From NCBI GenBank assembly GCA_951406725.2, contig OX597831.1, positions 31,620,001 through 31,684,000 on the forward strand: a stretch of DNA of 64,000 bases, written 5' to 3'. Positions 2,194 through 64,000 of this stretch are shown here, in pieces (the first letter of the stretch is position 1; every line of letters begins with the position of its first letter). This stretch comes from Octopus vulgaris. Its lineage: Eukaryota. Under the pieces are notes generated by a model. That model had not been told where the DNA came from. It did not search any database and saw nothing but the letters and a program-made list of their open reading frames with translations. The translations under genes were made by a program, and so were the position numbers.

Positions 2194-2445
2194 GTATGCT
2201 ATATTTCCTCTCTTATTCTATCACACGTCACTTATTTTCTTGTTTTGCTTCTTTTTTTTTTTTTTTATTATACCCTCCTTCAGTGTCATTCCTGCAAATG
2301 TTGACTTGTAACAATTCTAAATGGCGTTAATGACATCTTGCTCATCTTTCTTAGAGATTCTGCAAAGGCCCATGAGCACTGCCCTTTCTTCTAAACTCAA
2401 AAATTTGTTTTGTATTATGCTAAACCTTTATCTCTCTCTCCCCAG

Positions 2446-2862
2446 GTGCAATATGTTGGTCCCATTGGCCCCAGTGTCCGAGAAGCGATGCCTCAAAACA
2501 TTGACGTTCCCAAAGAGAGCTTGCTGCCAGAGGATGAGGTTCACCTGATTCTAGAATACAAAGTAGGTGATGTGTGGGGCAACCACACCAGCATTGTGGC
2601 TAACCGTTTCATTCTCAACAACAACTTAGCCAACCTCAATGAAGCCCTCATGAAATTCTTCTTCAGTTCTTTAGAGATTTATCAGCCAGAGTTGATTGTC
2701 TTCTCTGGTTTGCACACATTCTCAGTACAAGATCTTGAACTCGGTGAGAGGAAGGTTAAAGAACTTGCCAAACACTTCCAGATGCTCCCTATCTCTGTTC
2801 CTGTACATCTGGAACTGGCTAGCATGACGGACCCAAACTTTGTCACATCATTGCTCAAAAAG
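2446..2862 (+). CDS. ADPGK: ADPGK exon (417 nt)
   Basis: cccag| and |gtcagt; GPIGP, DEVHLILEY, ANRFI, SGLH and VHLELASM motifs. Confidence 0.95.
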
Positions 2863-3660
2863 GTCAGTAATATATTCTATTTTTTACAGCTGATGTCCTT
2901 CGTTGTTCTGAGTTTAGGTCTCAATTCTGTGAATGTATGCAAGTGGGAGTGGGGGGGGGGGGGCGCAATTTTGATTGTTTTTCAAGAATGCAAGGCGACA
3001 GAATATTCTTTGAGTTCATTTGTAGTCTGTTAATGAATTTTTTGTAAAACCAAACATGAGTCATGTGAAAATTTAAACATTAGATTGTTGTTTATTTCAA
3101 GGGCAGCTCTGATCAAGGAAAACTATAATAATACAGCATTCCAGTTGTGACCACCCCACCTTTATGTCTTTCCCAAGTATAATGTATCTGGGATCACATT
3201 ATCATCTCTCAGCTATGTTGTTACATTAAGACAGTAGGATGTAGTTTGAGAAAGATAGATATTGTTTTGTTGTGGCGAGCATCATTGACACCCTTGGGGG
3301 ATTGGAAGAATGGACTAGCCAAACTCTTATAAAGAGTAGCCTATTGATTGAGACAAGAGGTCGGTAGGAGTTGTTGAGAGGCTGTTTTGGAGTCTTGCAA
3401 AGTATGTTATGTGAATGCATTGATTTTAGCTCCGCTTCATTAAATTATATATCTAACGTTTGTCAAGGATATGAAATATTTGAAGCAGGCTGAACAGCCA
3501 TGTAGAAGCTTGTGTGGACTGTGTAAGGCTGTCTGTGGGGACATGAGCAAGAATTGGGTGAAGTATGATCTATTGAGTCAGGGGCTGAGTCTCAAAGAAC
3601 TTTAATGTGTTTGTGGAAGAGGTTTATTTGGAATCTGAATAGTTTCTTGTTATTTTGCAG

Positions 3661-8647: not shown

Positions 8648-9938
8648 ATATATATATATGTATATGTAAAAAGATACAAACTGGGACAAGAACGCAAAAC
8701 ATTTAGAAGACGATACAAAAAACACGGACGGGACATTCGAAGCCTTCAATCTTCAGTCAAGAACCGGATCATCCTCGCAATTTCGGTTGGTTATATATAT
8801 ATATATATATAAATTTACAGTAAAATGTAATGCAAACACAAGATAATTGTGAAACAAAGCAGGGCATTGAACAGGATAAAATATGAATAAATGGAACACC
8901 AACTTGGGACTGAAATCTTAATAGCTTAAAAATTAATTAGAAATCTTCTGTGATTTAATTGTAAGAGGTCTGTAATATACTAACACCTGTGTGTGGGAAA
9001 TGGTATACACCTCTCGGTATATAGAACTATGTGCACCTGTATGTGTAGAATAATTTACATCTCTCTGTAGGGGGGCAATTTATTGATTTGTGTGTGTATG
9101 GCCGTTTATGCCTGTGTGTGCACGCAGGTGCATGTAGGACAATTCTCTGCGTAGAATGGTAAGCACTTCTCTAATACGACAGTTTGTACCTGTGGATGTA
9201 GAACTTATTCCGTCTCCCCCCGGCTCTCTGACATTATACAAATGCTATGAGCATTCAATCATTTTCTTCTGACTAACAATGGTTATTCTGTCTCGTCCAA
9301 TTGTAACAATGTTGGTGGTTGATTGTTAATTAAACAGCATCCTGTTTCCCTTTATTTAGCTCTCAGTTAGCCCCAGTGGAGGGACTTGATTAAATGCTTT
9401 CTAGCTGGGACCATCCTGTCATTATTTCTGTTTTATTTAGACACAGTGTATCTTGGACATATGCAATGTAACACTTCCTTTAAGTCAGTAAGTAATGATA
9501 TAAAAAGTGACTTGGCTACTGTTTTTAGAAACTCAAGTGACCACATAGAACAGGATTTCTTCACCAGGAATGCCCATACACCTAGGAGTACTGACCACAA
9601 TCTCTGGTATTGCTTTCTTTAAATATCAAAATCTTTGAGATTTTCTCTCCTCTTCTATTATTACTGGTTATCCATTTATAAAGTAAAACAAAGCAACTCA
9701 AAAAGATTGATAATGATTTTAATGCTATGGAAAACCAGATACGAGGACACATTAGGCAATGTTTTAAGGGCCTGGAATTGTAAAAGGAACAAGAACCCCT
9801 CATATAATGGCTCTCCTTTGTTTGTCCATTTCACTTTTGTTTTTGTTGTTTTTTTTTATTGCAGGTGTAGTATGTAAGTGCATTTCTAATGTGCATGTAT
9901 TTAAACAGCCAAGTTGTTATTCTGTCATCTCATTGCAG

Positions 9939-10424
9939 GACAGTTCTTCAGGTTTTGCTGTCAACCAGCCGGAAATCCATAAAGTCTCCGACATAATCTT
10001 GTGGTTATTAAAAAACTTTGGCTACTCCAAAAAGGATTTCCCAGCATCCCGACTGACTCGCATTCATTTCCACTCCTTGACTTACCACATTGTAGGGGTC
10101 GTGCCTGACGCCTGGGAAAACAGTGAGTCAGCAGCAGCTGCTGGCACTCAAATAGCAGGGCGGCAGGCTTGTAATACAGAGCGGTTGGTATCTGAGGATG
10201 TGAAACTAAAGATTCCCAAAGCATTCCGCCTACATTCCAACGCCGAACCACGCTCTCTTGATGAGAAACGGCCAGTGATATCATGGGACTTGGAAGGGTA
10301 TCACTTTGTCTTCAGCCCTGTTCTGGTCTGTCAACATCCCAAGAGGACTGTCGGTTTAGGTGATGCAATCTCGTCTACAGGACTGATGTACTCAACTTTC
10401 AAAACTAAATATCGATTTCAGTAG
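9939..10424 (+). CDS. ADPGK: ADPGK last coding exon
   Basis: cattgcag| acceptor in frame; VSDIILW, LTRIHFHSL and catalytic TVGLGDAIS motif; TAG at 10422-10424. Confidence 0.95.
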   Translation, partial: DSSSGFAVNQPEIHKVSDIILWLLKNFGYSKKDFPASRLTRIHFHSLTYHIVGVVPDAWENSESAAAAGTQIAGRQACNTERLVSEDVKLKIPKAFRLHSNAEPRSLDEKRPVISWDLEGYHFVFSPVLVCQHPKRTVGLGDAISSTGLMYSTFKTKYRFQ

Positions 10425-21380: not shown

Positions 21381-24380
21381 TAATAATAATGAAATTATTG
21401 TATACAGTGCTCAGGTGCACTACAACTTGTCAAGTGTGTATAAAGCATATGCAGTAATGCATAAATGTCTGGAAAGTGAACAGTGTATGAGTCAGATACA
21501 TGCTTGTGTGTGTGTATGGAGGGGAGAAAATCAGGTGTAGTGTTGGTGAATCTCAGGAAGCATGGAAGTTTTGAAGGATGCAGTGCTCCGACAACTAACA
21601 ACTGATGCCGGCAATTTGTTCTATACTTCAGCAACTCTCAGCGTGAAAAAATATTTCCAAAAGTCATGGGAGCTGTGCTGTTTTCTGACTTTTGTAAACA
21701 AGTCCACGGGTGTTAGACAGATGGAGTTTGAAAAGATGCTCAGAGTTATTGTTTGTAAGATGGTTAATAATTTTATGGGTGTCTGCCAAGTCAGTTGCCA
21801 GACGTCGGAGTTTCAATGTATCCATGCCCAGAGAAGTAAGGCGTTCAGAATATGGCAAATGCCTGATGGAGGGTATACTCTTGGTTGCACATCGTTGAAC
21901 AGTTTCCAGATAATTAATATCCTGGGCAAGATAGGGGTTCCAGACTGGTGATGCAAATTCCAGGTGAGACTACACCATAGCTGTATAAAGCCTCAGATAG
22001 ATAGCCGGAGAGCAGCTCATAAAGGACTTTGTAAACATGTCCATGGGTGTCAGACAGATGGAGTTTGAAAAGGTGCTCAGAGTTATTGTTTGTAAGATAG
22101 TTAATAATTTTATGGGTGTCTGCCAAGTCAGTTGCCAGACGTCGGAGTTTCAATGTATCCATGTCCAGGGAAGTAAGGCGTTCAGAATATGGCAAATGCC
22201 TGATGGAGGGTATACTCTTGGTTGCACATAGCTGAACGGCTTCCAGACGATTAACATCCTGGGCAAGATAGGGGTTCCAGACTAGTGATGCAAATTCCAG
22301 TTGAGGTCGCACCAAAGCTATATAAAGCCGCAGATAGATAGCCGGAGAGCGGCTCACAAAGGACTTGGTGAGTGATGCCAAGACACCCTCAGCCTTCTTG
22401 GCAATTTTAGCAATGTGTTTTGTCCAACGCAAATCGCTGTTGACAATAATGCCCAGGTCACGTTCACAAGAAGACTTTTTCAGATTAGTGTTGTGGAGGG
22501 AGTAAGTAGACACTGGGATTTTTCCTCTCAAAATGCATGGTGGTACATTTGTCCACAGACAGCTTGAGTTGCCTGTCCATGATCCACTGCTGCATTGTGT
22601 CCAGGTCTGATTGCAATAAAGATCTATAGTGTACAAGATCTGTCCTCTTTATTTCGAGGTACAGCTTGATGTCATCTGCATATTTCAGCACTGTGGCATT
22701 CTTTAAGTTAGCATCTATGTCATTAATATATGCAACAAATAAAAGGAGGCCAAGAACAGATCCCTGTGGTACACCAGATGTCATCTCATAGGGGGAAGAG
22801 TGCTGTCCTAGAACTGTGATAACCTCTTTTCGGCCGATAATGAAGGACTTCAACCAGTTATAGAGATCATCTCTTACACCCATTGCAGAGAGTTTCACCA
22901 TAAGTCTTTTGTGTGGCACAGAATTAAAAGCCTTAGCAAAGTCCAGGGAAACAACATCCACCCAGGAGTCACCATCAGTGATTCGAGTAATGTCCTCAAG
23001 AAACTCAATGAGTTGATTACAGCAGCTGGAGTTAGGAATAAATCCAAATTGTGATGGCTGGATCATGCTGTGAGACTTCCAGAAGTTCCAGAAAGTTTCT
23101 GTGACACAGGATTCCATGTTTGGCGATGCAGCTAGTAAGACTAACGGGGTGATAGTTGACAGGCGATGTGCGGTCACCTTTTTTGAACATAACACTGGCA
23201 GTTTTCCACTGCCCTGGAGTAACACCATTGTCAAGACAGAATTGAAAGAATAGTGAAAGTTGGTTTAGAAGAAAGTACCAACTGCATTTGAGAAGTAGGT
23301 ATGTAACACTAGGAGAGGCAGAGTTATGTTTATTCTTAAGGTGGTGTTGTAGCATTGCTGGTGTAAATTTCATAGTAGTTATAGAGTCCGGTGTCAGAGG
23401 TGATAGAGATAGAACATTTTGATCTTCAACAGTAAAGATGCTTGCATAGCATCCAGCAATGATTTTTGCACATTCTTTGGGATTGTCAGTAATCTGGCCT
23501 GTGTGGGGATTGCGAAGGGGACCAACTGGAGAGTGAGGTCTCTGCTTTGAATGTACATACTTCCAGAACACTTTGCTGTCAGGGTTGGTTGCTATGCGCT
23601 GTTCGAATTCAAGCACTGCCTTTTTTGTCACCTGCTTGAGATGGTTGGCTGATCTATTGCACTTTTTCCTGTTGATTTCTGATTTCTGCATTTTGTATTC
23701 CTGTTCAGCATTTCGGCGTTCTTTCCTGGCAAGTCGGACTGCTGTGGTCAGAATGTTCTGAAGCATAGTGTTCACATCTCCATAGACATAAAATTCAAGC
23801 CAGTTTGAGCGTCACAGCTCAGTACAATAAGAGTTCCAGTCAAAGCGGGCAGTTTGAAGATGGTTGTGGTTTTTCTTACAAACAATCAGTGACAAGTCAG
23901 CCATGATCATGGAATGATCAAAGTCACCTAAAGGTTCTTCAGCAGTGACACTCATGATTGTTTCAGGAGAAGCGGTAAATAGCAGATCCAAAGTGTTGTT
24001 ACCCCTTGTGGGGGAGATAACGACTTGGGACCATGCACTTTGCGGCCAACAGAAGGCCTCCCAGTCATTCTCGGGGAAATTGAAGTCCCCCGCAATATAA
24101 ACATAAGTGGCTGTTTTCATGACAGCAAGTCTGAGGATATCAAAAAGATGTGTGTCTTGATGATAATTTGGGGGGCGGTAAACAACTCCAAGTAGAAGTG
24201 TTGACAAGGTCATGTGTATATTGCAGAAAAATACTTCCTGTTGAGATTGGTTCAAATCATCACACACCCACCACAGCGATTAATGCGGTCTTTGCGGGAC
24301 AGGTTGAAAATTCCATCACAAAGTGCAGAATGTGCCCATGTTTCTGTGACTGATGAAATCTGGGTCAATACTTTTGACGT
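21381..24380 (-). mobile_element. CR1/L2-type LINE, near-complete decayed ORF2 (APE + RT) with a duplicated 3' segment
   Basis: GVVYRPP, GDFNFP, TRGNNTLDL, DH; LDFAKAF, SGVPQGSVLG, YADD; ERDLG, VRPQLEF; (ATT)n-type tail near 21381; several frameshifts. Confidence 0.9.
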
Positions 24381-39149: not shown

Positions 39150-41677
39150 TGTGGAAAGTGTGACTGCGCATGCGGGAAAGTGTGACTGCGCATGTCCGAA
39201 AGTGTGATTGCGCATGCACGAACGTGTGACTGCGCATGCGGGAAAGTATAAATGCGCATGCGCGAAGTGTGACTGCGCATACGCGAACGTGAATGCGCAT
39301 GCGCGAAAGGGTGACCGCACATGCGCGAACGTGTGGCTGCGCAAGCGCGAAAGTGTGACTGCGCAAGCGCGAAAATGTGACTGCGCGAAAGTGTAACTGC
39401 GCATGCGCAAAGTATGAATGCGCATGCGCGAAAGTGTGAATGCGCATGCGCGAAAGTGTGAATGCGCATGCGCGGATATGTGAATGCGCATGCGCGAAAG
39501 TGACTGCGTTTGCGCGGATATGTAACTGCGCATGCGCGAAAGTGTGAATGCGCATGCGCGAAAGTGTGATTGCGCATGCGCGGATATGTGACTACGCATG
39601 CGCGAAAATGTCACTGCGCATGCGCCGACGTGTGACAACGCATGCGCGAATGTGTGACTGCGCATGCGCGAAAATGTGACTGCGCATGCGCGAAAGTGTC
39701 ACTGCGCATGCGTGAACGTGTAAATGCACAAGCGCGAAAGTATGACTGCGCATGCCCGAAAATATGACAGCGCTGCGCGAACGTGTGACTGCGCATGCGT
39801 AAAAGTGTGACGGCGCATGCGCGAACGTGTGACTGCGCATGTGCGAAAGTGTGGCCACACATGCGCGAATGTGTGACTGCGCATGCGGGAACGTGTGACT
39901 GCGCATGCGCGTAAGTGTGACTCCGCGAAAGTGTGAATGCGCATGCGCGAAAGTGTGAATGCGCATTCGCGGATATGTGAGTGCACACGCGCGAAAGTGT
40001 GACTGCGCATGCGCGAACTGTGACTACGCATGCGCGAATGTGTGACTGGGCATGCGCGAACATGTGACTGCGCATGCGCGAACGTGTGACACGAAAATAT
40101 GACAGCGCTGCGCGAACATGTGACTGCGCATGCGCAAAAGTGCGGATGTGTGAATGCGCATGCGCGAATGTGTGACTACGCATGCGCGGAAGTGTGAATG
40201 CGCATGCGCGGATATGTAACTGCGCATGCGCGAACGTGTGACGGCGCATGCGCGAATGTATGACTGCGCATGCGCGAACGTGTGACTGCGCATGCGCGAA
40301 AGTGTGACTGCGCATGCGCGGATATGTCACTGCGCATGCGCGAAAGTGTGACTGCGCATGCGCGGATATGTGACTGCGCATGCGCGAAAGTGTGACTGCG
40401 CATGCGCGGATATGTGACTGCGCATGCGCGAATGTGTGACTGCGCATGAGCGAAAGTGTGAAAGCGCATGCGTGAAAGTGTGACTGCGCATGCGCGAAAG
40501 TGTGACTGCGCATGCGCGAAAGTGTGACTGCGCATGCACGAAAGTGTGACTGCGCATGCGCGGATGTGTCACTGCGCGTGCGCGAAAGTGTGACTGCGCA
40601 TGCGCGAAAGTATGAATGCGCATGAGCGTATGGGCGGATATGTGACTGCGCATGCGCGAAAGTGTGACTGCGCATGCGCGAAAGTGTGCCTGCGCTTGCG
40701 CGAAAGTGTGGATGCGCATGCGCGAAAGTGTGACTGCGCATGCGCGAATGTGTCACTGCGCATGCGCGAAAGTGTGACTGCGCATGCGCGAAAGTATGAA
40801 TGCGCATGCGCGAAAGTGTGACTGCGCATGCGCGAAAGTGTGGATGCGCGTGCGCGAAAGTGTGACTGCGAATGCGCGGATATGTGAATGCGCATACGCG
40901 AAAGTGTGACTGCGCATGCGCTGATATGTGACTGCGAATGTGTGACTGCGCATGCGCGAAATTGTGACTGCGCATGCGCGAAAGTCTGACTACGCATGCG
41001 CGAATGTGTGACTGCGCATGCGCGAGAGTGTGACTGCGCATGCGCGAATGTGTGAATGCGCATGCGCGAATGTGTGACTGCGCATGCGCGAAAGTGTGAC
41101 TACGCATGCGCGGATATGTCACTGCGCATGCGCGAAAGTGTCACTGCGCATGCGCGAAAGTGTGACTGCGTATGGACGGATATGTGACTGCGCATGCGCG
41201 AACGTGTGACTGCACATGCGCGAAAGTGTCACTGCGCATGCGCGGATATGTCACTGCCCATGCGCGAAAGTGTGACTGCGCATGCGCGAAAGTGGATGCG
41301 CATGCGCGGATATGTGACTGCGCATATGCGAAAGTGTGACTGCGCATGCGCGGATATGTGACTGCGCATGCGCGAATGTGTGACTGCGCATTAGCGAAAG
41401 TGTGAAAGCGCATGCGTGAAAGTGTGACTGCGCATGCGCGGATATTTGACTGCGCATGCGCGAAAGTGTGACTACGCATGCGCGAATGTGTGACTGCGCA
41501 TGCGCGAGCGTGTGACTGCGCATGCGCGAGCGTGTGACTGCGCATGCGCGAGCGTGTGACTGCGCATGCGTGAAATGTGTGACTGCCCATCGCGAATGTG
41601 TGAGCGCGCATGCGCGAATGTGTGACTGCGCATGCGCGAAAGTGTGACTACGCATGCGCGAATGTGTGGCTGCGCAT
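39150..41677. repeat. 22-bp satellite array 1 (AAAGTGTGACTGCGCATGCGCG), about 115 units
   Basis: Directly visible; 22-aa periodicity of overlapping ORFs equals 3 x 22 bp. Confidence 0.95.
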
Positions 41678-42010
41678 TTTTAGAGAGTTATAGCCAAAAA
41701 TAGCAAAAAAATGCATTAAAAATGGAAAAAAAATTATAGTAATTTTTTTTTTAAATCGTTGACTCATCGTAGACATTTTTAGAGAGTTACTTCCCTTATA
41801 TAATAGCAAAAAAATGCATCAAAATGGAAAAATGATGGTAAATTGTTTTGAAAATCGTATACTCATCGTAGACGCGCGCTGATACCCAGAAGGGCTCGAT
41901 ATGAATCACGACTATAAGATACCCGGTTTTGGTTAAACTGCAACACAAAATGTGGGAGTAGTTAGGAATCTAAATTGTAGGAGACAGACACACAACTTCA
42001 CTTTTATATA
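41675..42010 (-). mobile_element. Internal Helitron 5' segment repeated between the satellite arrays
   Basis: Near-identical to about 38804-39143. Confidence 0.85.
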
Positions 42011-42014
42011 ATTA

Positions 42015-43440
42015 TTTGTGGAAAGTGTGACTGCGCATGCGCGAACGTGTGCGTGCGCATGCGCGAATGTGTGACTGCGCATGCGCGAACGTGTGACTGC
42101 GCATGCATGAAAGTGTGATTGCGCATGCGCGAACATGTGACTGCGCTTGCGCGAAAGTTTAAATGCTCATGCTCGAACGTGTGACTGCGCATGCGCGAAC
42201 GTGACTGCGCGTTCGCGAAAGTGTGACCTCACAAGTACGAACGTGTGGCTGCACGAAAGTGTAACTGCGCATGCCCGAAAGTGTGACTGCGCATGCGCAA
42301 AAGTGTGAATGTGCATGCGCGAAAGTGTGAATGCGCATGCGCGGACATGTGACTGCGCATGCGCGAATGTGTACTGCGCATGCGCGAATGTGTGACTGCG
42401 GATGCGCGAAAGTGTGAATGTGCATGCGCGAAAGTGATTGCGCATGCGCGGACGTGCGATTTTGCATGCGCGAAAATGTGACAGCGCATGCGCGGATATG
42501 TGACTGCGCGTGCGCGAACGGGTGACTACGCATGCGCGAATGTGTGACTGCGCATGCGCGAACGTGTAACTGCGCATGCGCGAAAGTGTGAATGCGCATG
42601 TGCGAAAGTATGAATGCGCATGCGCGGATATGTGACTATGCATGCGCGAAAGTGTGACTACGCATGCTCGAATGTGTGACTGCGCATGCGCGAACGGGTG
42701 ACTACGCATGCGCGAATGTGTGACTCGCATGCGCGAATGTGTAACTGCGCATGCGCGAAAGTGTGAGTTCGCATGCGCGGATATGTGACTATGCATGCGC
42801 GAAAGTGTGACTACGCATGCGCGAATGTGTGACTGCGCATGCGCGAACGGGTGACTGCGCATGCGCGAAAGTGTGAATGCGCATGTGTGAAAGTTTGATT
42901 GCGCATGCGGGAAAGTGTGACTGCGCATGCGCGAAAGTGTGACTGCGCATGCGCGAATGTGTGACTGCGCATGCGCGAAAGTGTGACTGCGCATGCGCGA
43001 ACGTGTGACTGCGCATGCGCGAAAGTGTGAATGCGCATGCGCGGTTATGTGAATGCGCATGCGCGAATGTGTGACTGCGCATGCGCGAAAGTGTAACTAC
43101 GCGTGCGCGAATGTGTGATTGCGAAAGTGTGAATGCGCATGCGCGAAAGTGTGAATGCGCATGCGCGAAAGTATGACTGCGCATGCGCGGATATGTGACT
43201 GTGCATGCGCGAAAGTGTGACTGCGCATGCGCGAAAGTGTGAATGCGCATATATGTGACTGCGCACGCGAACGTTTGACTGAGCATGCGCGAAAGTTTGA
43301 ATGTGCTTGCGCGAACGTGTGAGTGCACATGCGCGAACGTGTGACTGCACATGCGCGAATGTGTGACTGCGCATGCCCGAAAGTGTGACTGCGCATGCGC
43401 GAAAGTGTGACTACGCATGCGCGAAAGTGTGACTGCGTAG
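42015..43440. repeat. 22-bp satellite array 2, about 65 units
   Basis: Same monomer as array 1. Confidence 0.95.
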
Positions 43441-49845: not shown

Positions 49846-50233
49846 ATGGATGTTTGCCCTTATCTTTCAGTAATGAAACTTCTAGAGAAACTCATACAAA
49901 GGGCTGACCATCTGTTGCGACTGTTGTTGTTTCTGCACGTTTTTTGCACCATTTGTCAACAGGCTGCAATTTCACAATCCAACATGGTTCGAAATGTAAC
50001 TTACAGAAAGATTCCCAACAAGAATTTCAGACGTTCCTTTGGCATCAATGGAAGCCGTCATCGTCAAGAGAGGAGGGTGCGCAGTGTTATTGAGTGCAGC
50101 GTATTTTGCATGGAATCACCGAGTTGCACCTTTTTCACCTTTTGGAGGAAGAGGAAATGTGAGAGGTTCTCCGATTGGCAAATGATTACCACCTCGTCTT
50201 CATGGAAAGATGTTTCCTACATACAGACTTACG
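49846..50233 (+). CDS. Uncharacterised, probably secreted PAN/Apple-domain protein, first coding exon (start at 49846 or 49873)
   Basis: Hydrophobic LLRLLLFLHVFCTIC signal-like segment; SVIECSVFCMESPSCTFFTF...C is a PAN-like Cys pattern; acg|gtaagg donor (phase 1). Confidence 0.75.
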
Positions 50234-51102: not shown

Positions 51103-51254
51103 ACTCTTTGTGGTATAAAGCCTTCTCATTCAACACCAATTCCATGTCTAGCCCTGCTGATGTATTCTTTGGCAAACATAATCGAAGTCGCCCTCATTCT
51201 GAATTCTACCGAAGTTCTATCCTTGATGTCTGGGATTCTCTTAATATTAATGAG
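51103..51254 (+). CDS. Same gene, exon 2
   Basis: ctcttcaag| and gag|gtaaac; phase 1-0; DSLWYKAF...FYRSSILDVWDSLNINE. Confidence 0.75.
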
Positions 51255-52377: not shown

Positions 52378-54050
52378 ATGTGTGTGTGTTTAATTGACAA
52401 AACAAATGTGACCATCCCCAACTATAACTAAACATTAATATTTTATTATATTTTTGCCACCTTTAACCTGGGGGTTCTTAACTCACCTTATTCCCTTATA
52501 ATCCATCCTGGCCATTTCAAAGCAACCCAAGTTAAAATGCATGTCACACGCATATTGTTCAGCCCTAGGCCAGCTCTTATTGAACAGACTTGTGATCAGA
52601 AGTGTTCCAGCCATGATCATCCCAACTATTAAGATTGATGCCTTACAATAAGTCCTTCCAATTTTAAGACTGTAAGGAGGGATCTTACAGAGATTTGTAT
52701 GCTATTTCTATCAAGTTGAGTGACCCCCAAGGAAGGACACTATAGTGCTATCATGTTGAGTAACTCTGTAGAGGGATGCTACAGTACAGTTTCTGCTAGT
52801 CTTCCATAAAAACAACTTTGCCCGGACTTGTGCTTTGAAGGGTAACTTTCTAGGTGCAATCCCATGGTCATTCATGAACGAAGGGGGTCACTCTCTCGTG
52901 TATACATTTGCATATATATAAATATGTATGTTTGTGTGTGTGTGTGTGTGTGTACATAGACACACACACACACATATACAAATGTATAAAATATGTATCT
53001 ATGTGTGTGAGTATGTATATATACATACATACATGTGTATATGTATGTGTGTGTATTTGTATTACACCCCACACCACTTGACAACCAGTGTTAGTTTGTT
53101 TACATCCTCATGGCTTAGAAGTTAGGAAACAAAGACTAATAAAATAAGGACCAGACTTTGAAAAAAAAAGCAGTCCTGGTATCAATTAGTTCGATTAAAC
53201 CCTTGAATGCAGTGCCCCAGCATGGCCACAGTCCATTGACTGAAACAAATAAAAGAAGTGAATGATGTGTGTATAGGAATAAAGTATTGAGTAAGTAAAT
53301 GACAGGTCTTGAGTTCAAATCTCTTAAAAGTGTGACTGTGTGGGTAGGCACAGGCGTGACTGTGTGGTAAGTAGCTTGCTTACCAACCACATGGTTCTGG
53401 GTTCAGTCCCCCTATGTGACACATTGAGCAAGTGTCTTCTACTGTAGCCTAGGGCCAGCCAAAGCCTTGTGAGTGGATTTGGTAGACGGAAACTGAAAGA
53501 AGCCCGTTGTATATATATATATATATATACATATTGGGTTGACAACTAAATTCCCACCGTTTTATGGGGGAGGGTTGCAAGAAGGAAGAAAGAAATATAG
53601 ACACAAGAAGGGATCAAGAAAAAATAGTATATATGGGGGGGGGGGCATGGAGAGACTTAGGTGGAAAACCAGTCTGGTCCTTCTTCACCAGAATGTCCTC
53701 CCACTGGAATTCTCCCCTTGCCTATGTTTCTTGCAGTGGTTAATATACAATGGCTCAAGAGGAACACTAATGGTGTCACTAATATGGGGGACCTGTGAAG
53801 GACCATGGGGTACTGACCCTTCCTTGTGAACCAGAGAGTAAAAAAAATAAAAACAAGAATAAGAGAGAAACACAAACAAACAAGGATAAGAAAAGAGAGT
53901 GGGGAGTGAAGAGATAGAGATACAGTAAAGAAAGAAAGCAAGCAAGAAGGAAATCTATTTTTGAATACTCTCCACCACCACCACCACACCCCCTGCATCA
54001 TGGGTCTCACCATAACTTTATCATCTCAATTTCTCTCTTTCTTCTCCAAG

Positions 54051-54214
54051 GTGAAAATAGTTCTCAGAAAAGCTGATAAAGATGTCCTCACCTTGAAGTT
54101 TGCAGCCACCAACACCAACATCAGCAACTGGTTTTCTGGTCCCAACCTAAAATTTGCTCCTTGGTCTGATCTACCACCAGACAATACGACATACAAGATG
54201 GATATTGTCTATAA
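54051..54214 (+). CDS. Same gene, exon 3
   Basis: cttctccaag| and aa|gtgagt; phase 0-2; VKIVL...F...NWF...L...PWSDL continues a pattern I recall from uncharacterised mollusc PAN-associated proteins. Confidence 0.75.
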
Positions 54215-55214
54215 GTGAGTTACAACTGGTTTTGAATCATAGCTTTATGCACGCACGCACACATGCAAGTACACACACACGGGCACAGGCATGACTCTCC
54301 AACAACATACAAGGGGGTGCTGAAGAGATCCTGGCTTTGGATTCCGTGCTGGTGGCACGTAAAAAGCCCCAATCCGATCGTGGCCATTGCCAGCCTCGCC
54401 TGGTACCTGTGCCGGTGGCACGTAAAAAGCACCAATCCGATTGTGGCCGTTGCCAGCCTCGCCTGGCACGTAAAAAGCAACCACTACACTCACAGAGTGG
54501 TTGGCATTAGGAAGGGCATCCAGCTGTAGAAACACTGCCAGATCAGACTGGAGCCTGGTGCAGCCTTCTGGCTTCCTAGATCCCGGTCGAACCGTCCAAC
54601 CCATGCTAGCATGGAAAACGGACGTCAAACGATGATGATGATCAGTTAATTATGATTTTATTCAACATATTCCCCTCTCAGATTCACACACTCATTGCAA
54701 TGGTCTGTCAATTCTTCTAAGCCCTGTAAAAGATCTTGGAAGTTTGAGCCTCCAACCAGGTCTTTTGTAATACTCTTAAAGTCAGGAACCTCCCTCGTAG
54801 TTTCAGGTTCAATCCCACAGTGTGACAAGTGTCTTCTATCATAGTTCCAGGCTAACCAAAACTCTGTGAGCGAATTTGGGAGATGCAAAATGGAAGAAGC
54901 TTGTCACATATATGTATATGTGTATCTTTATTACCCACAAGGGTTAAGTACATATATATGGGAACTTAAGGATAAAAAAATAAATTATAATTTACAATGA
55001 AAAATACTTATATCTGCACCAGAAAAATAGAAAACGCTCATTATGCATTAACGAGATTTTCTTTATAATTAGGAGTAATTTACCGATTATTAACAATTTT
55101 AAGGAATGTAAAGCCTCATGTCTCCATAAAATTGGGTATACTTTCTCCAGATATAAATAGTACTTATAAAATACCCTTTGAAATAAATGCAACTAGTTAT
55201 AATCTTTCTTTCTT

Positions 55215-55605
55215 TATCTTTTACTTGTTTCAGTCATTTGACTGCGGCCATGCTGGAGCACCGCCTTTAGTCGAGCAAATCGACCCCGGGACTTATTCTT
55301 TGTAAGCCCAGTACTTATACTATCGGTCTCTTTTTGCCGAACCGCTAAGTGACGGGGACGTAATCACACCAGCATCGGTTGTCAAGCAATGCTAGGGGGA
55401 CAAACACAGACACACAAATACACACATACATATATATATATACATATATACGACAGGCTTCTTTCAGTTTCTGCCTACCAAATCCACTCACAAGACATTG
55501 GTCGGCCCGGGGCTATAGCAGAAGACACTTGCCCAAGATGCCACGCAGTGGGTCTGAACCCGGAACCATGTGGTTGGTTAGCAAGCAATTTACCACACAG
55601 CCACT
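55215..55605 (-). mobile_element. tRNA-SINE family A
   Basis: Near-identical reverse complement of 29853-30236. Confidence 0.85.
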
Positions 55606-56756
55606 CGAGCACTTTTACTTTATTATATTTAGGAGTACAGAAATTGAAATGGGTTATGGGCATATTGTTATTTGTATATGTATGTATATGTGTGTAATAT
55701 ATGTATATGTAAGTGAATATGTTTATATATATATATATATTCTAGCAAAAACTATATATATATATATAAGTGTTTATTTGTGTGTACATATTTGTATATT
55801 CTTTATGTACTTGCATTTGTTTGTAGATATATCCATATATTTATGTATATTGATATATATTTACACTTGTTATTTAGTATATAGTTATGTATAAAGTATG
55901 TGTGAATGTACTAACCCACTTGAGTACACTAGTGGATTTGTATAGGTGTTGATGGATATGTGTATATATATGTATGTATGTATGTATATTTGTGTACATG
56001 TTATTACGATAAACTAATATGATTTATTTAACTAATAATCTGACCTCCTATTGTTTACAACAGATCAAGCGGATAAGTTCAAATGAATTAGCCAATTAGA
56101 AATAGCTTATGATTTAAAATAACCGCCCCCTAACCCCTAATAATTTTGAAAATCTTTAATATATATATAATATAAGCATAAATATTGTGGATTAAATTCA
56201 GCTTTGACAAAAAGTTAGGAATTACTCTTTTGGATTTTACAATTGAATTTGTTTGCTTTATGTGGATGTATAAAATGATAACTATATTCTGATTGTCTGG
56301 TTTATATGCTTATACGCATGTATTTTTGTATGTATATATATATATATTAGCCTGCTCGCTTAGCCAGTGGGGTGGCATCATTTGAAGGCTAAAACAATGT
56401 GAAGCGCATTGTGACCAGCGATGTGTAACAAAATCTGATAGCCTGGTCGGTCACGGTGATCACGGTGATATATATATATATTGAATCTTGTATCGTGAAT
56501 TTTTGATATGTTAGAAGACATTATTATAGTATGTAAGATCTGTTGAAGATTACTGTTAATACAATAATATTGTTGTTACTGATAAGCATAGACGTGTTTA
56601 TATGTTCTAATGTATTTATATACGTATATGACATATGGTATATCCACTGGAATATATTGTTTAATTGTGTTCATTAATGTGTTTTGTGCATGTGAATAGT
56701 ATATACGCTTTGCTTATGTATGTATATGTGTGTATATATGTATTTGTGTGTATATA

Positions 56757-56793
<37 letters not shown>

Positions 56794-56874
56794 TTGGATA
56801 TTTGTTTATTGTTTATTTTTTATATATTAAGTAATATGTGTATCATGTTCAGTATATTAATATTAATATTTTTA

Positions 56875-57038
56875 AAGTTCTTTATAATCTCTGACGAGGC
56901 CTATGGTTTTTTTAATATATAAGTATTTTTTTTTTTAAATGCCTACAACCTTAGTATGTTGACATCTATAGGCAAATAAAATTAAATTTACTTTTGACCA
57001 TAGGCTGAAACAGCTGTAAGAAGTAATCTTTAGGACTT
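56875..57038 (+). ncRNA. Type I hammerhead ribozyme motif with a greatly extended stem II
   Basis: TCT CTGACGA GGCCTATGGT [about 90 nt] ACCATAGGCT GAAA CAGCTG TA AGA; distal stem I AAGTTCT/AGGACTT. Confidence 0.75.
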
Positions 57039-57213
57039 CATTAATTTATACTATGACTTTTAAAATCTGTATTTGTATTATTATCTATTGATTTATATAA
57101 TATTTTTTGTATGCTTTTGATGTTCTAATTTGTAAAATGAATAAATAATCCAACCATTATAATATCCGTAAGTTGATGAACAAACCAAATTTGTTTCTCC
57201 ATTTTCTTATTTG

Positions 57214-57249
<36 letters not shown>

Positions 57250-57844
57250 GTATATATACTTGATGTATATAGAGCTATAACTATGAGCATTTCAATTTTG
57301 GGGGGAAAACCTTTAACAGGGGGAAAAAAAAAGTTAACAGCCAAATAGTTAGTTACATAAGCAGCTGTTAACTAGATTAATAGTTGTGTGTGTGTGTGTG
57401 TGTGCATATGTATATATGCTGTCCAACTGAATCATCTCTTCCAATCATATGAAGTAAAACCTTCAACTTTTTTGTGTATTTTGACAAGATTCCAGTTAGC
57501 TTTTTCGTGAATCCGACTGTAAAATATTGTCCAGACATTACTATTAGACAAATCTCTGTGATGGGTGTTTTAGAAAATGACCTTTAAGCCAAGTATTGAG
57601 AAGAAAGATCCATCAAGCTGAGTGATGTTGTAGTCATGGCAGATACTGAGGTCATGCAAGTGGCACCCGTGCTGCTGGCACGTAAAAGCACCCATTACAC
57701 TCTCGGAGTGGTTGGTGTTAGGAAGGGCATCAAGCCATAGAAGCCATGCCAAATCAGACTGGAGTTTGGTGCAGCCTGCCAGCCCTGGTTAAACCATCCA
57801 ATCCATGCTAACACGGACAACGGACATTAAATGATGATGATGAC

Positions 57845-57920
<76 letters not shown>

Positions 57921-58812
57921 AAATGTGTGTGTGTGTATAATATCACCGTGTCTCTTTTATTCACTCTGTGAGTTACTTGGTGACTTCAGCAGTGCGTGCT
58001 GACGGCATGATGAAATGCACCTAGTGCACTCTGTTAAATGGTTGGCGAATTGAGCAGAGGATTCTTTAGTATTGCTGAAGGTTGAGCAACCTCTCCAGTG
58101 CTGGTGTCTCAAGAAACTGCCCCCACCCAGTTTTGCTCTGTAATGTGGTTGATTTTACAGAAGAGTCTTTCACCCCTGAAACTGCCAAAACTTTGTAAAG
58201 ATGATCAGATGCAGCATGGACCTTCAGTTCACCTGAGAGGGCACCAAATGTCTTGGATTATAAAGAACTGCCCAACCCATTACCAGTATAGAAACTTGGT
58301 GGGAGGAGGGCAGATGATATGAGTGGATGGCTAATGTATTGATTTGCTAAGACACAGGATGAGTGTCCAAGACAACTGTAGGAAAAACACTATATTCGAC
58401 ATGACCTTAATCACCTAAAGTGTTAACAATGATATTCTCCAGATGATTTGATGATAATGCCATTGGTAATCTGGGGATAATATCATTGATAATCTGTTAT
58501 TCATTCTTGCTGCTTCAATACCATTGCAAAATTCACTTGAGTTTTTCCTCAAAATCATTGCTGATGTTTTGCCCCTCCCCCAAGGGAGATGTCTAAAGTC
58601 AATAGTGCCATCACAACCCCCCACAGTCTTGCTACCATCCCACTACAATCCCATCGCTGTCCCTGTCTGACCCAGCTTCAGTACAACAGTTGATCCACCA
58701 ATACTTCCAGCCATCTGTCCCAGTGACACACTTTTAAATCTTCCTTTTAAACCCCAGTTTTCTCTCCACCAACCACCCCTCACTCAAAATGTTCCTTGTT
58801 TTCATATTGCAG

Positions 58813-60060
58813 CATAACAAGTGATGTTAATTCACATAACAACACTAACCAAGTTGACCATGGTAACCAAGGTAACAACACTAACAACATTGACAACAGT
58901 AACCAAGGTAACAGCACTAACAACATTGACAACAGTAACCAAGGTAACAGCACTAACCAAGGTGACAACAATAGATATGATGCGAATAAAGTCATGGAGA
59001 ACAATGGTAAAGTTGAGGCTAAGAAGGTGCATGATGATGATAAGGACAAAGACAAATGTAAGGGTGAAGGGAAGGGTAAGGGCGATTGTAAAGATAAAGA
59101 TGATAAGGACAAAGACAAGTGTAAGGGTGAAGGGAAGGGGAAGGGCGATTGTAAGGATAAAGATGATAAGGACAAAGACAAGTGTAAGGGTGAAGGGAAG
59201 GGGAAGGGCGATTGTAAGGATAAAGATGATAAGGACAAAGACAAGTGTAAGGGTGAAGGGAAGGGGAAGGGCGATTGTAAGGATAAAGATGATAAGGACA
59301 AAAACAAGTGTAAGGGTGAAGGGAAGGGGAAGGGCGATTGTAAGGATAAAGATGATAAGGACAAAGACAAGTGTAAGGGTGAAGGGAAGGGGAAGGGCGA
59401 TTGTAAGGATAAAGATGATAAGGACAAAGACAAGTGTAAGGGTGAAGGGAAGGGGAAGGGCGATTGTAAGGATAAAGATGATAAGGACAAAGACAAGTGT
59501 AAGGGTGAAGGGAAGGGGAAGGGCGATTGTAAGGATAAAGATGATAAGGACAAAGACAAGTGTAAGGGTGAAGGGAAGGGGAAGGGCGATTGTAAGGATA
59601 AAGATGATAAGGACAAAGACAAGTGTAAGGGTGAAGGGAAGGGGAAGGGCGATTGTAAGGATAAAGATGATAAGGACAAAGACAAGTGTAAGGGTGAAGG
59701 GAAGGGGAAGGGCGATTGTAAGGATAAAGATGATAAGGACAAAGAGAAATGTAAGGGTGAAGGGAAGGGTAAGGGCGATTGTAAGGATAAAGATGATAAG
59801 GACAAAGACAAATGTAAGGGTGATGGGAAGGATAAAGGTGATTGTAAGGATGAAAAGAAGGACAGTGATGATGGTAAAGATAAGTGCAAGAGCCAAGGAA
59901 AAGGCCAGAATCAGTGCAACAATACTAGTGAAGGCAACATCAATGATGAAAGCCTCAACAGTAACCATGGCAATAACAGTAAGCAAGAAAACAACAGTAA
60001 CAGCAGCAACGACATCAATTCTGAAGTGAAACCCCTAAATTTACATAAAAACAACCCAAG
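58813..60060 (+). CDS. Candidate 1248-nt exon: Asn-rich segment, 13 x DKDKDKCKGEGKGKGDCKDKD, Asn/Ser-rich segment; possibly exon 4 of the PAN-domain gene
   Basis: ttttcatattgcag| acceptor and caag|gtaatg donor, phase 2-2; several unit differences are synonymous in this frame; non-repetitive flanks stay open. Confidence 0.6.
59039..59857 (+). repeat. 63-bp minisatellite, 13 copies
   Basis: First unit at 59039, last at 59795 (12 x 63 apart). Confidence 0.95.
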
Positions 60061-60485
60061 GTAATGATCAATGTTTTTGTTGTTATATTTTAGGCCTAGG
60101 TCAATAGATCTATGTGATCAATATATTAAGAGATTCACTGACAGCACGAAACTGGCTCAAATTCTAAATTTGACCCCAACCATCAAATCTCCTTTATACA
60201 ATAGTGTTGTTAATTAAATTGCGGTTTCGTTTAGCCTCGTTGTCTTTTACATATGTAATCTTTTATCTGTTTCAGTTATTTGAGTGTGGCCATGCTGGGC
60301 AGCACTGCCTTGAAGTCCTTTTAGTTGAAGGAATCGACCCCAGGATTTTCTTTTCTTTAAAGCCTGGTTCTTATTTTATTGGATCTTTTACCAGACTGCT
60401 TAGTTACAGGGACATAAACATACCAACACTGGTTATCAAGCAGTGGTGGGGGACAAACACAGGCACAGACACACTCATAAGTGTG

Positions 60486-60516
<31 letters not shown>

Positions 60517-60559
60517 ATATATATATGTATATGTTAGCATGGAGAACGGACGTTAAACG

Positions 60560-60815
60560 ATGATGATGATGATGTATATGTATATATGTGTATATATATG
60601 TATATATATGTATATATATGTGTATATATATGTATATATATATGTGTGTATATATATGTATATATATATGTGTATATATGTATATATATGTGTATATATA
60701 TGTGTATATATGTGTATATATATGTATATATATGTATATATATATGTATATATATGTATATATATATATATGTATATATATGTATGTATATATATATATA
60801 TATATACACATACAC
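60560..60815. repeat. (TA)/(TATG) compound microsatellite inside a SINE A copy (about 60258-60925, -)
   Basis: Directly visible. Confidence 0.9.
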
Positions 60816-62132
60816 ACATGATGGGCTTCTTTCAGTTTCTGTTTAACAAATCCATTCACAAGGTGCTATGCAGCGGGACTGAACCCAGAACCATGTGGTT
60901 GGGAAGCAAACTTCTTACCACCCATCCACACTTGCACCTAGGACATTCGAAGAGGCAACAAATGATTTTTAGGATTATAATCGTCCTCAGTAATGAACCT
61001 GTTCTGGACATTAAGAGGGAGCTTTTTGTTACCAACACATTTACACAATACCTGACTGCAACTGAACTAGGAACCTGCATTTCTAAGCTAAACGTAGAGA
61101 CACTCTTATCAGTGAAATCACTGATGCATGTTCAATGAGTGGTGGATTATCAGAAAGGTGCCCGTGTTGGCCAAAATCCATTGACAAAACTGGGTTCCAG
61201 TTTTGTCAATGTTGATTTTGGTTCAGAGGTGAAATCATGATTGTGTGGTCGAGAAGTTTGCTTTGCAAACATGTGGGTATTGAGTGCAAACCCTTGACCC
61301 AACACCTTGGGCAAACGTCTTCAATTAAAGCTGCATGCTGGCCAGTGCCTGGCGAGTGAATTTGGTTGAGAGAAACTGTGTGGAAGCCCATTGTATGTGT
61401 GTGTGTGTTTCAGTCTGTGTTTGCCCCCACCTCCCTGCCCCACCAGTTGACAACTGGTATTGGTCTGCCGCCATGTTCTGAGTTCAAATTCCGCCGAGGT
61501 CGACTTTGCCTTTCATCCTTTTGGGGTCGATTAAATAAGTACCAGTTACGCACTGGGGTCGATGTAATCGACTTAATCCGTTTGTCTGTCCTTGTTTGTC
61601 CCCTCTGTGTTTAGCCCCTTGTGGGTAGTAAAGAAATAGGTATTAGTTTGTTTACATCCCCATAAATTAGCAGTTCGACAAAAGATACCAATAGAATAAA
61701 TACCAGACCTTAAAAAAATAAGCACCGGGGTCAATTTGATTAAAACCCTTTTAGGGGCCACTAGAATAAGTACCAGGTTTTAAAGTGAAAAAAAGGTTCT
61801 GGGGTCGGTTCATTTGACTAAATTCTTTTGAGGCATTGCCCCAGCATGGCCACAGTCCAATGACTGAAACAAAAGATTAAACAAAGTCATACTATGTTGA
61901 TGTCTGGGTCAGCTTTATTATTTAGTCTTCCACAACCCTAATATATTGATTATTCCTTCAATTTTCTACATTTCTACTATTATTTTCTCTTTTAATTATA
62001 CAAATTACATTCCACGTTGATGTGCAATTTTTTTCTATTTTGGCACCATTTCTGTTTAGCCATTCCTGCTAGAATACCGTTTGTGCCTTCAATGTTCAGT
62101 TAGAAGTCTTTATCAATGTACGTCCTTGGATT

Positions 62133-62545
62133 TCAGAACAACCTGCTGTGCTTGAGGAGACCTATTGAGTCAAGTACATGAACATCGAAATAAATATCAA
62201 TGGAAATAGTAGTTGTGATACCTGTGCCGGTGGCACGTAAAAAGCACCATCCGAACGTGGCCGATGCCAGCGCCGCCTTGACTGGCTTCTGTGCTGGTGG
62301 CACGTAAAAAGCACCAGCCAATCATGGCCGCTGCCAGACTCCCCTGGCACCTGTGCTGGTGGCACGTAAAAAGCACCCACTACACTCACGGAGTGGTTGG
62401 CGTTAGGAAGGGCATCCAGCTGTAGGAACACTGCCAGATCAGACTGGAGCCTGCTGCAGCCTCCTGGCTTCCCAGACCCCGGTCGAACCGTCCAACCAGT
62501 GCTAGCACGGAAAACAGACGTTAAACGATGATGATGATGATGATC
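62133..62545 (+). mobile_element. RTE 3'-UTR short element (another copy at about 54340-54640)
   Basis: GGTGGCACGTAAAAAGCACC subrepeats and (GAT)n tail. Confidence 0.85.
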
Positions 62546-63245
62546 CATTCTCATCTTTTGCAGACTCCATGATTCTCCTTTATATAAAACCTTTTTACAA
62601 ATATTTATGTTTTAAACATATTCCGTCTAATATCCTGGAAAGCGGACGTTAAACGATGATGATGATGATGATGATGAAGAAGATGGTGAGCTGGCAGAAC
62701 TGTTAGCACACTGGATGAAATGCTTAGCAGTATTTCGTCTGCCGCTGCGTTCTGAGTTCAAATTCCGTTGGGGTCAACTTTGCCTTTCTTCCTTTTGAGG
62801 TTGATGAAATGAGTACCTGTTATGCACTGGGGTCAAAGTAATTGACCCCTTCCCCAAATATTCAGGCCTTGTGCCTACAGTAGAAAGGATTATCATTATT
62901 ATTATAATTCCTGAATTTCATTGTTGGTGTGTCATTCAATGGTATTGTCCCTTCCTCTTTAAATGGCTCTCTCAGATGTTTTGCTTGAAGATGCCCTCAT
63001 CTTGTTTTAAGCTAATTATTGTAATTAAGGCCAATATAATTAATGTAAGACTTTCTTTTCCTAGAGTACTGCACTTTTTATGCATATTAATAGGATTGTA
63101 GTATTTTTTCTGTTTTCACAGTGTCCTCCCCAACCACCTGGTCCCAGGTTCAGTTTCACTGTACAGCACCTTGGGCAAGTGTCTTCTACTATAGCCCTGG
63201 GCTGACCAAAGTGGATTTGGATGACAAGAACTGAAATAAGCCCAT

Positions 63246-63319
<74 letters not shown>

Positions 63320-63699
63320 CTGGTGCCACATAAACTGCACTCATGCCAATGCTGCATAAATGCACCCATGCCAGTGGCACGTAAAAAGCACCCAGCACAC
63401 ACACACCCTGCGAAGTGGTTGGTGTTAGAAAGGGCATCCAACTATAGAAACGATGCCAAAACAGGCAACTGGAGTCCGGACAGCTCCCTGGCTGGCCAAC
63501 TGCTGTCAAACCGTCCAACACATGCCAGCATGCGAAGTGGACAGTAAATGATGATGATGGTTGGTCGGTCTACATTACTTTGTAAGGAGTACAGGACCAC
63601 TTTCCCAGTTTCTCTGGCATATACCCGCCCCCAGAAGGGACACTGGTCTATCGCAGAGTTACTCCTTTTCACCAGCTGAGTGGACTGGAGCAATGTGAA

Positions 63700-63885
63700 G
63701 TTAAGTTAATTTTTTGGCTCAAAAAGCAAAAAGCAAGGCCATGTAGGAGAACATGGAGTTATGTACAGGGTGGTGTTCATGCAAAGAGTTCAGGCCATTT
63801 CTGGTCAAGGGAGACTTTGAACCGAGCAGTTGTCGGCATCTTCACTATCTCATCCAGCAGCCTATTCCACGGATCCGCAACCCGG
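63700..63885 (-). mobile_element. CR1/L2-type LINE 3' end nested in SINE D
   Basis: Reverse complement of about 29180-29365. Confidence 0.8.
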
Positions 63886-64000
63886 AAGTGAAGTGTTTTG
63901 CTCAAGGAACCACCATCTTACAGTCATGAATCAAAGGCCCTAACCACTAAGCCATGTGCCTCCACACATACTCATGTGAATGTGTATGTGTATCACCTTG

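Follow-up and report, generated by a model that had tools for sequence, protein, structure and literature searches.

A likely gained exon encoding a Cys-periodic Lys/Asp polyampholyte inside a globular domain of an octopus PAN-domain protein

Interruption of a globular domain by a low-complexity repeat is already known for a secreted mollusc protein, nacrein, in which a Gly-X-Asn or acidic repeat divides the carbonic anhydrase (CA) domain (PMC4066178). In the sections of the reports cited here, the length and make-up of the repeat of nacrein and N66 are described as varying between species (PMC4066178, PMC6599672). The PAN-domain gene considered here, whose first four coding exons lie in the analyzed 64,000-nucleotide stretch of Octopus vulgaris DNA (the window), works like nacrein in that a most likely extracellular globular domain is split by a low-complexity repeat, and, like nacrein and N66, it encodes Asn-rich segments. 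The repeat itself is different, being a Cys-periodic Lys/Asp polyampholyte rather than a Gly-X-Asn or poly-acidic sequence, and membership in the nacrein group was rejected because Pfam identifies no alpha-carbonic anhydrase domain. The PAN-domain family is uncharacterised, and the insert is new in its make, whereas its design is known; since nacrein provides the precedent, the surprise is moderate.

The parallel invites the reading that the octopus protein is a nacrein-like biomineral matrix protein of the statolith or stylet, with an insert that binds calcium or crystal faces. The design shared with nacrein, as outlined in the cited sections of PMC4066178, and the Asn-rich flanks of the insert agree with this reading. 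Nevertheless, we consider it very improbable: the repeat has a net charge of +11, i.e., it is neutral to basic without an acidic excess; the CA domain is absent; and the top Atlas match of the paralogue domain, the coral USOMP-5 / egg-protein-like family, scores below 0.9 (0.89, a lead only). USOMP-5 resembles the octopus family in a fibrinogen-type start, seen by eye in the alignment (PMC4890752, S17 Fig), but in the sequences displayed there neither the WFS...PWxDL motif nor the Cys/Lys repeat can be recognized by eye. USOMP-5 is a distant fold relative at most.

Another group of known proteins comparable to the product of the PAN-domain gene is the FReDs (ficolins, ANGPTL, intelectin), whose fibrinogen globes are weakly resembled by the model of its second domain; PAN-bearing FReDs are among those reported, in the part of the source cited, from Biomphalaria and Lottia (PMC7588048). 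In contrast with FReDs, the octopus proteins have no Pfam Fibrinogen_C match, and TLDc folds score as well. No insert of the kind described below was found for FReDs in the literature searched.

The PAN-domain gene has six coding exons joined in an open frame of 715 aa; the frame that omits exon 4 is also open (299 aa). Its features are listed below by position in the window or, for exons 5 and 6, in locus L002.

49846..50233, plus strand: coding exon 1; hydrophobic, signal-peptide-like N-terminus and PAN/apple domain; 81% identity to orthologue
51103..51254, plus strand: coding exon 2, phase 1-0; second globular domain begins; 88% identity to orthologue
54051..54214, plus strand: coding exon 3, phase 0-2; signature WFS...PWxDL; 91% identity to orthologue
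58813..60060, plus strand: exon 4, 1248 nt = 416 codons, phase 2-2; very likely coding sequence of the PAN-domain gene
58837..58970, plus strand: 36-nt (12-aa) Asn-rich repeats, 3.7 copies (TRF), in the 5′ flank of exon 4
59036..59851, plus strand: 63-nt array, 13.0 copies, 98% (TRF); 21-aa Lys/Asp/Gly/Cys unit
59852..60060, plus strand: Asn/Ser-rich 3′ flank of exon 4; 73% identity to orthologue
60061..64000, plus strand: start of intron 4, which continues past the window end
L002:1427-1575: exon 5, phase 2-1; second half of the globular domain; 98% identity to orthologue
L002:4128-4175: exon 6; last strand and stop; 100% identity to orthologue

Exons 5 and 6 were located via the orthologue sequence, 1.4 and 4.1 kb past the end of the window, or 5.4 and 8.1 kb after exon 4; a search for downstream exons with the family motif GC..D.GW found none, the motif residues being lost in the PAN-domain gene. 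The encoded protein begins with a hydrophobic N-terminus, followed by the PAN domain and a second, unnamed globular domain that is weakly fibrinogen-like or TLDc-like in fold. Exon 1 matches Pfam PAN_1 with 25 bits (cut-off 21.4), which places the protein among PAN/apple-domain proteins. The ATG at 49873 is common to three of the four O. bimaculoides models discussed below, while the fourth model enters exon 1 by splicing from an exon further upstream. Hydropathy peaks at 2.55 over residues 26-37 (12-residue window) and there is no membrane span further on; judging from these features, the protein is most likely secreted.

Several neighboring elements deserve mention. Exons of an ADP-dependent glucokinase (Pfam ADP_PFK_GK; window 2395-3033 and 9768-10424) lie upstream of the PAN-domain gene and provide a synteny anchor for other cephalopods. 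A 22-bp satellite of about 197 copies (39154-43437, GC 50-58%) ends about 6.4 kb before the first coding exon; its core is GC-rich and palindromic and presumably resembles the NRF1 binding motif. A 337-bp tandem duplication (92%) at 21691-22366 lies inside retroelement fragments that by eye are reverse-transcriptase-like. Locus L009 on the same contig (G000:C18, minus strand, about 73-78 kb past the window end) is a long degenerate satellite, the frames of which encode Arg/Lys/Cys-rich repeats interrupted by stops.

Exon 4 is bounded by an acceptor, ...tttcatattgcag followed by the first exonic C at 58813 (AG at 58811-58812), and by a donor, CAAG/GTAATG, with the last exonic base at 60060 (GT at 60061-60062). 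The splice sites, 416 codons and 2-2 phase given in the preliminary description are confirmed from the sequence. The phase-2 join of exon 3 to exon 4, also proposed there, holds as well: exons 1-3 continue into exon 4 in an open frame (...MDIVY-N-ITSDVN...), and the O. bimaculoides orthologue models contain the same join. The exon consists of a 73-aa Asn-rich flank, a repeat of about 286 aa and a 56-aa Asn/Ser flank, with totals of 28 Cys, nine N-glycosylation sequons, all of which are in the flanks, and a net charge of +6. The repeat comprises 27 Cys, 108 Lys, 83 Asp, 14 Glu and 52 Gly, and no A, V, I, L, M, F, W or Y. This polyampholyte has 72% charged residues, a net charge per residue of 0.04, and 106 opposite-charge against 16 like-charge neighbors. 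Cys spacing alternates between 9 and 10 in the repeat, and the only spacings in the exon overall are 9, 10 and 13. TRF (13.0 copies), spacing and composition bear out the earlier account of a 13-unit array with C-X9-C-X10 periodicity and no hydrophobic residues; nine of the 13 units are identical. Outside the array, the 63-nt unit has no match in the genome either as DNA (nine exact matches, all in the array) or as protein (eight matches, likewise all in the array). No Pfam family matched exon 4, and the Atlas search gave no usable match.

That exon 4 is a coding exon of the PAN-domain gene is, in our opinion, very likely. The open frame of the repeat alone is weak evidence for this, because five of the six frames are open across the 63-nt array. 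The openness of the flanks is more telling: the 429 nt outside the 63-mers stayed open in only 4 of 20,000 shuffles. Coding constraint had previously been proposed from the three differences between unit 1 and the core unit, all of which are indeed synonymous, and this argument stands in part. Among the nine distinct variants over all 13 units, five are synonymous, where a fraction of 0.15 is expected (P 0.006), and seven affect third positions (P 0.008); however, the antisense frame, taken in register, likewise has five of nine synonymous, and the four other distinct variants, in units 5, 12 and 13, are non-synonymous. The same open frames would also be seen in an intronic minisatellite wrongly taken for an exon, as would an X1 contig that spans the exon 4 acceptor unspliced (58313-58908). 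This contig, like other intronic contigs that were obtained, may represent DNA or unspliced RNA. Against a minisatellite argue the rarity of open flanks among shuffles and the preservation, at the protein level, of the flanks and both exon ends in O. bimaculoides despite several indels; we regard this alternative as scarcely credible.

A search with exon 1 identified one protein cluster, with four members, all from Octopus bimaculoides (XP_052830469.1, A0A0L8IDZ1, XP_014773361.1 and XP_014773369.1); no orthologue beyond O. bimaculoides was found in the sequence searches. All four models, which are automatic annotations of a single species and not independent of each other, include exon 4 with both junctions. 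Exon 4 is already present in public O. bimaculoides gene models, with uninformative names: those in the databases, clkA kinase and GATA zinc finger, have no Pfam match behind them in the model scanned and likely reflect the Asn-rich composition.

Exon 3 matches at least 41 other places in the genome, all on contig C28 and most within its first 2.3 Mb, where they form a dense cluster in both orientations. This cluster (G000:C28:28439-2258486, also about 14.6 Mb and 27.8 Mb; loci L015-L035) encodes PAN plus weakly fibrinogen-like proteins with variable loops and might represent an expansion in octopus that serves recognition or immunity. A family profile built from 11 of the C28 exon-3 paralogues together with exon 3 retrieved 77 proteins, mostly from octopus but also from amphioxus, sea star and snail, nearly all of them uncharacterised. 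Complete octopus paralogues are about 285-300 aa long and consist of a hydrophobic leader, a PAN-like domain and the second domain. The PAN-domain gene shares the domains, motifs and intron phases of this PAN + WFS...SSPWxDL family, including the N-half motif and, as a weak match, the C-half motif. The orthologue tail scores 11.7-12.9 bits against the family C-half, a value of 12.9 being reached by none of 1000 shuffles (best 12.5), and the hhalign probability is 79. The two C-half Cys of the family are missing from the PAN-domain gene, as is a second Cys pair earlier in the domain.

In all 11 paralogue genes examined (10 loci), the exon-3 equivalent is followed by an intron and then by the RRFY exon, with the same phase-2 boundary in 11 of 11 as read from the printed splice contexts; the paralogue introns at the position of exon 4 are about 0.5-3.6 kb long. 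Exon 3 of the PAN-domain gene terminates at this ancestral intron. Because the orthologue tail matches the family C-half and the paralogues share the intron, exon 4 lies in the ancestral phase-2 intron and inside the second globular domain. It is not a module appended to the protein; the globular domain that it interrupts has its second half encoded beyond the window.

In contrast to the PAN-domain gene, no scored relative in the family has an insert. Linkers between N-half and C-half range from -3 to 16 aa, and none exceeds 16 aa, in the 71 scorable domain pairs (64 of 92 proteins). Of the 26 N-halves without a scored C-half, four are the orthologue models and 22 could not be judged; moreover, five of 17 matches from one relatives search were dropped because the N-half was missing. 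Absence from all scored relatives makes it likely that exon 4 was gained here rather than lost elsewhere. The PAN-domain gene stands alone on contig C18, with a tree branch of 3.86. In a tree of 26 rows built from the N-half only, the orthologue groups with octopod rows (95/96), a placement that is unsure because the branch is very long.

Some relatives are of interest in their own right. P0057, modelled in O. sinensis, is a paralogue in which the N-half continues into an Asn/Ser-rich tail and the C-half is missing. This reflects either an annotation error or another gain of low-complexity sequence close to the site seen here. P0082 (O. bimaculoides LOC106874130) is a diverged paralogue that has neither the C-half Cys pair nor an insert. 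Atlas gives a further lead, and no more than a lead, to an unnamed cluster of mollusc PAN proteins (0.86). No literature on the PAN-domain gene or the C28 cluster was found, including by orthologue accessions and paralogue identifiers, in a search that covered mostly listings and abstracts and few subscription papers or supplements.

Structural models agree with the position of the insert. In the model of a paralogue (pLDDT 82), strands 218-220 and 228-235 flank the intron position, and the insertion point of exon 4 is thus predicted to be a surface loop between two strands. The N-terminal domain of the paralogue superimposes on the HGF N-domain (Z 10.7, rmsd 2.7, 81 aligned), and the orthologue PAN domain on the PAN fold (Z 7.0, rmsd 1.8, 63 aligned). 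The second domain is harder to assign. The paralogue domain matches fibrinogen globes weakly (Foldseek prob 0.77, E 0.017), and the Foldseek search with it gave no match at E <= 0.001; fold alignment gave Z 4.7 for ANGPTL3 (rmsd 4.5, 152 aligned) and VIA Z 4.4-4.9 for fibrinogen globes, with TLDc equally good at Z 5.0-5.4. When the family profile was searched against PDB sequences, only weak matches were obtained, mostly PAN domains (best E 0.024), and none of nine proteins reached the Pfam Fibrinogen_C cut-off. A diverged fibrinogen-like domain is favoured, though not proven, by an unnamed relative in which a fibrinogen-type start precedes the domain (E 0.0028, short of the cut-off).

The orthologue model has a mean pLDDT of 52. 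Confidence is high for residues 121-210 (blocks 70-90) and low for the insert (26-45), the strands after the insert are weak (block pLDDT 35-54, residues 491-540), and the last strand reaches 88. Because the alignment supplied to the model put part of the family C-half wrongly into the insert, the confidence after the insert may be understated. The fold alignments of the orthologue extend from before the insert to residue 557, i.e., over both sides, and the last strand of the second domain is predicted to dock back across the insert. The 416-residue insert is predicted to be disordered, and its composition agrees; it should be noted that the low pLDDT, in a region without homologues, is a prediction of disorder only.

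Exon 4 is probably included in the main isoform. The preliminary description proposed a skippable cassette. The exon does preserve the frame and its phase is symmetric, but symmetry is no sign of a cassette, because any exon surviving in a phase-2 intron must be 2-2. None of the four orthologue models skips it. Skipping is possible, since the 299-aa frame is open. A regulated cassette, with tissues making either a 299-aa protein resembling the paralogues or a cross-linking form of 715 aa, would suit the length of the skipped product, which is close to that of complete paralogues, and the large size of exon 4. We regard such regulation as improbable, given that the phase is forced by the ancestral intron, that the two labelled O. 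bimaculoides isoforms differ at the N-terminus only, and that the exon 4 donor agrees with the consensus at 7 of 9 positions, as is also the case for the donors of exons 1 and 3. Of 24 sequencing runs listed, 20 contain the stretch or part of it, with none on record as RNA, which speaks neither for nor against expression. Reads from four of these runs over 53950-59035 were swamped by intronic repeat families. The 54214 to 58813 junction is not among the joints listed for these runs (15 of 148), nor is a loose end at 54214 or 58813 among the loose ends listed (24 of 1599). X3 and X9 show depth in the bin with the start of exon 4 and none in the five preceding bins, although regions lacking coverage carry no weight here.

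The comparison with O. bimaculoides bears on what the insert does. The flanks of exon 4 are 71% (5′) and 73% (3′) identical between the species, but the O. bimaculoides repeat is built differently, with Cys spacings of 3, 5, 7 or 9, and its insert is 265-309 aa long, depending on the model, versus about 415 aa here. Nevertheless, both species keep a Cys every 3-13 residues of the repeat, balanced charge and 8-9 sequons, and richness in Cys, Lys and Asp/Glu is common to both repeats although the unit differs. Thus, composition rather than exact periodicity is kept, and the C-X9-C-X10 pattern is not shared by the two species. The O. bimaculoides insert also contains a basic segment in which Cys, Trp and Phe occur (P0004, residues about 281-308) that has no counterpart in O. 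vulgaris exon 4.

We propose that exon 4 is a usually included exon encoding a disordered Cys/Lys/Asp loop that serves cross-linking in a secreted, lectin-like matrix or gel protein, a proposal to which we give even weight for and against; the cross-linking matrix role, taken by itself, is about equally balanced. Its likely origin is a gain within the ancestral intron of the PAN-domain gene. The PAN and fibrinogen-like or TLDc-like domains may bind a glycan or protein partner; PAN domains have a role in protein or carbohydrate interactions (PMC7588048, in the part cited). The long loop would leave the second domain through Asn-rich, likely N-glycosylated linkers at both ends, and the near-neutral polyampholyte, with opposite charges adjacent, would stay hydrated. 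Under the oxidising conditions outside the cell, the widely spaced Cys could form both intra-chain and inter-chain pairs, and inter-chain disulfides would then yield a hydrated network. The array would turn over by unequal crossing-over, with selection acting on frame and composition, not on the exact period. Of the disordered, disulfide-crosslinkable module first described, the predicted disorder, the Cys- and charge-rich composition and the signal-like N-terminus stand.

The main rival is a tolerated spacer, followed by the regulated cassette. As a spacer, the loop would be nearly neutral and would change size by recombination, while the globular domains carry the function. The identity of most units, the location of the insertion site in a predicted loop, and the divergence of unit, Cys spacing and insert length between species that keep the flanking exons 91 and 98% identical all speak for it; variable Cys spacing and repeat length fit a tolerated spacer equally well. 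Many unpaired Cys in a secreted protein are costly, which argues for their use, as does the composition that both species retain; a mere spacer is accordingly possible but doubtful.

Two further classes were considered. Metallothioneins are small cytosolic proteins with CxC, CxxC or CC clusters. The 28 Cys, abundant Lys and Gly, and lack of hydrophobic residues in the repeat might suggest a metal-binding, metallothionein-like module, and metal binding was among the uses first suggested. However, the Cys are 9-13 apart (spacings 9, 10 and 13 only), CxC and CxxC are absent from exon 4, and an oxidising compartment is suggested by the signal-like N-terminus and the sequons. The protein is not a metallothionein, and metal binding of this kind is highly improbable. 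Neuropeptide precursors have dibasic cleavage sites between repeats; with one dibasic site in its repeat of about 286 aa, exon 4 does not encode one.

The locus offers a clean, datable likely exon gain, in which a large, predicted-disordered, Cys-periodic polyampholyte was put inside a folded domain and for which dozens of same-genome paralogues serve as controls. It also points to a large unnamed gene cluster in octopus. If cross-linking is true, the protein would be a candidate component of some octopus secretion, and its 21-aa unit a simple design for charge-balanced disulfide gels. A bolder version, which we consider unlikely, is that of an octopus-specific, self-cross-linking polyampholyte gel or cement that arose through a de novo exon in a lectin-like PAN protein, possibly with tissue-specific skipping. 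If so, the protein may be a component of egg-string glue or of sucker or skin mucus, repeat number would tune cross-link density between species, and skipping, if it occurs, would switch between a soluble 299-aa form and the cross-linking one.
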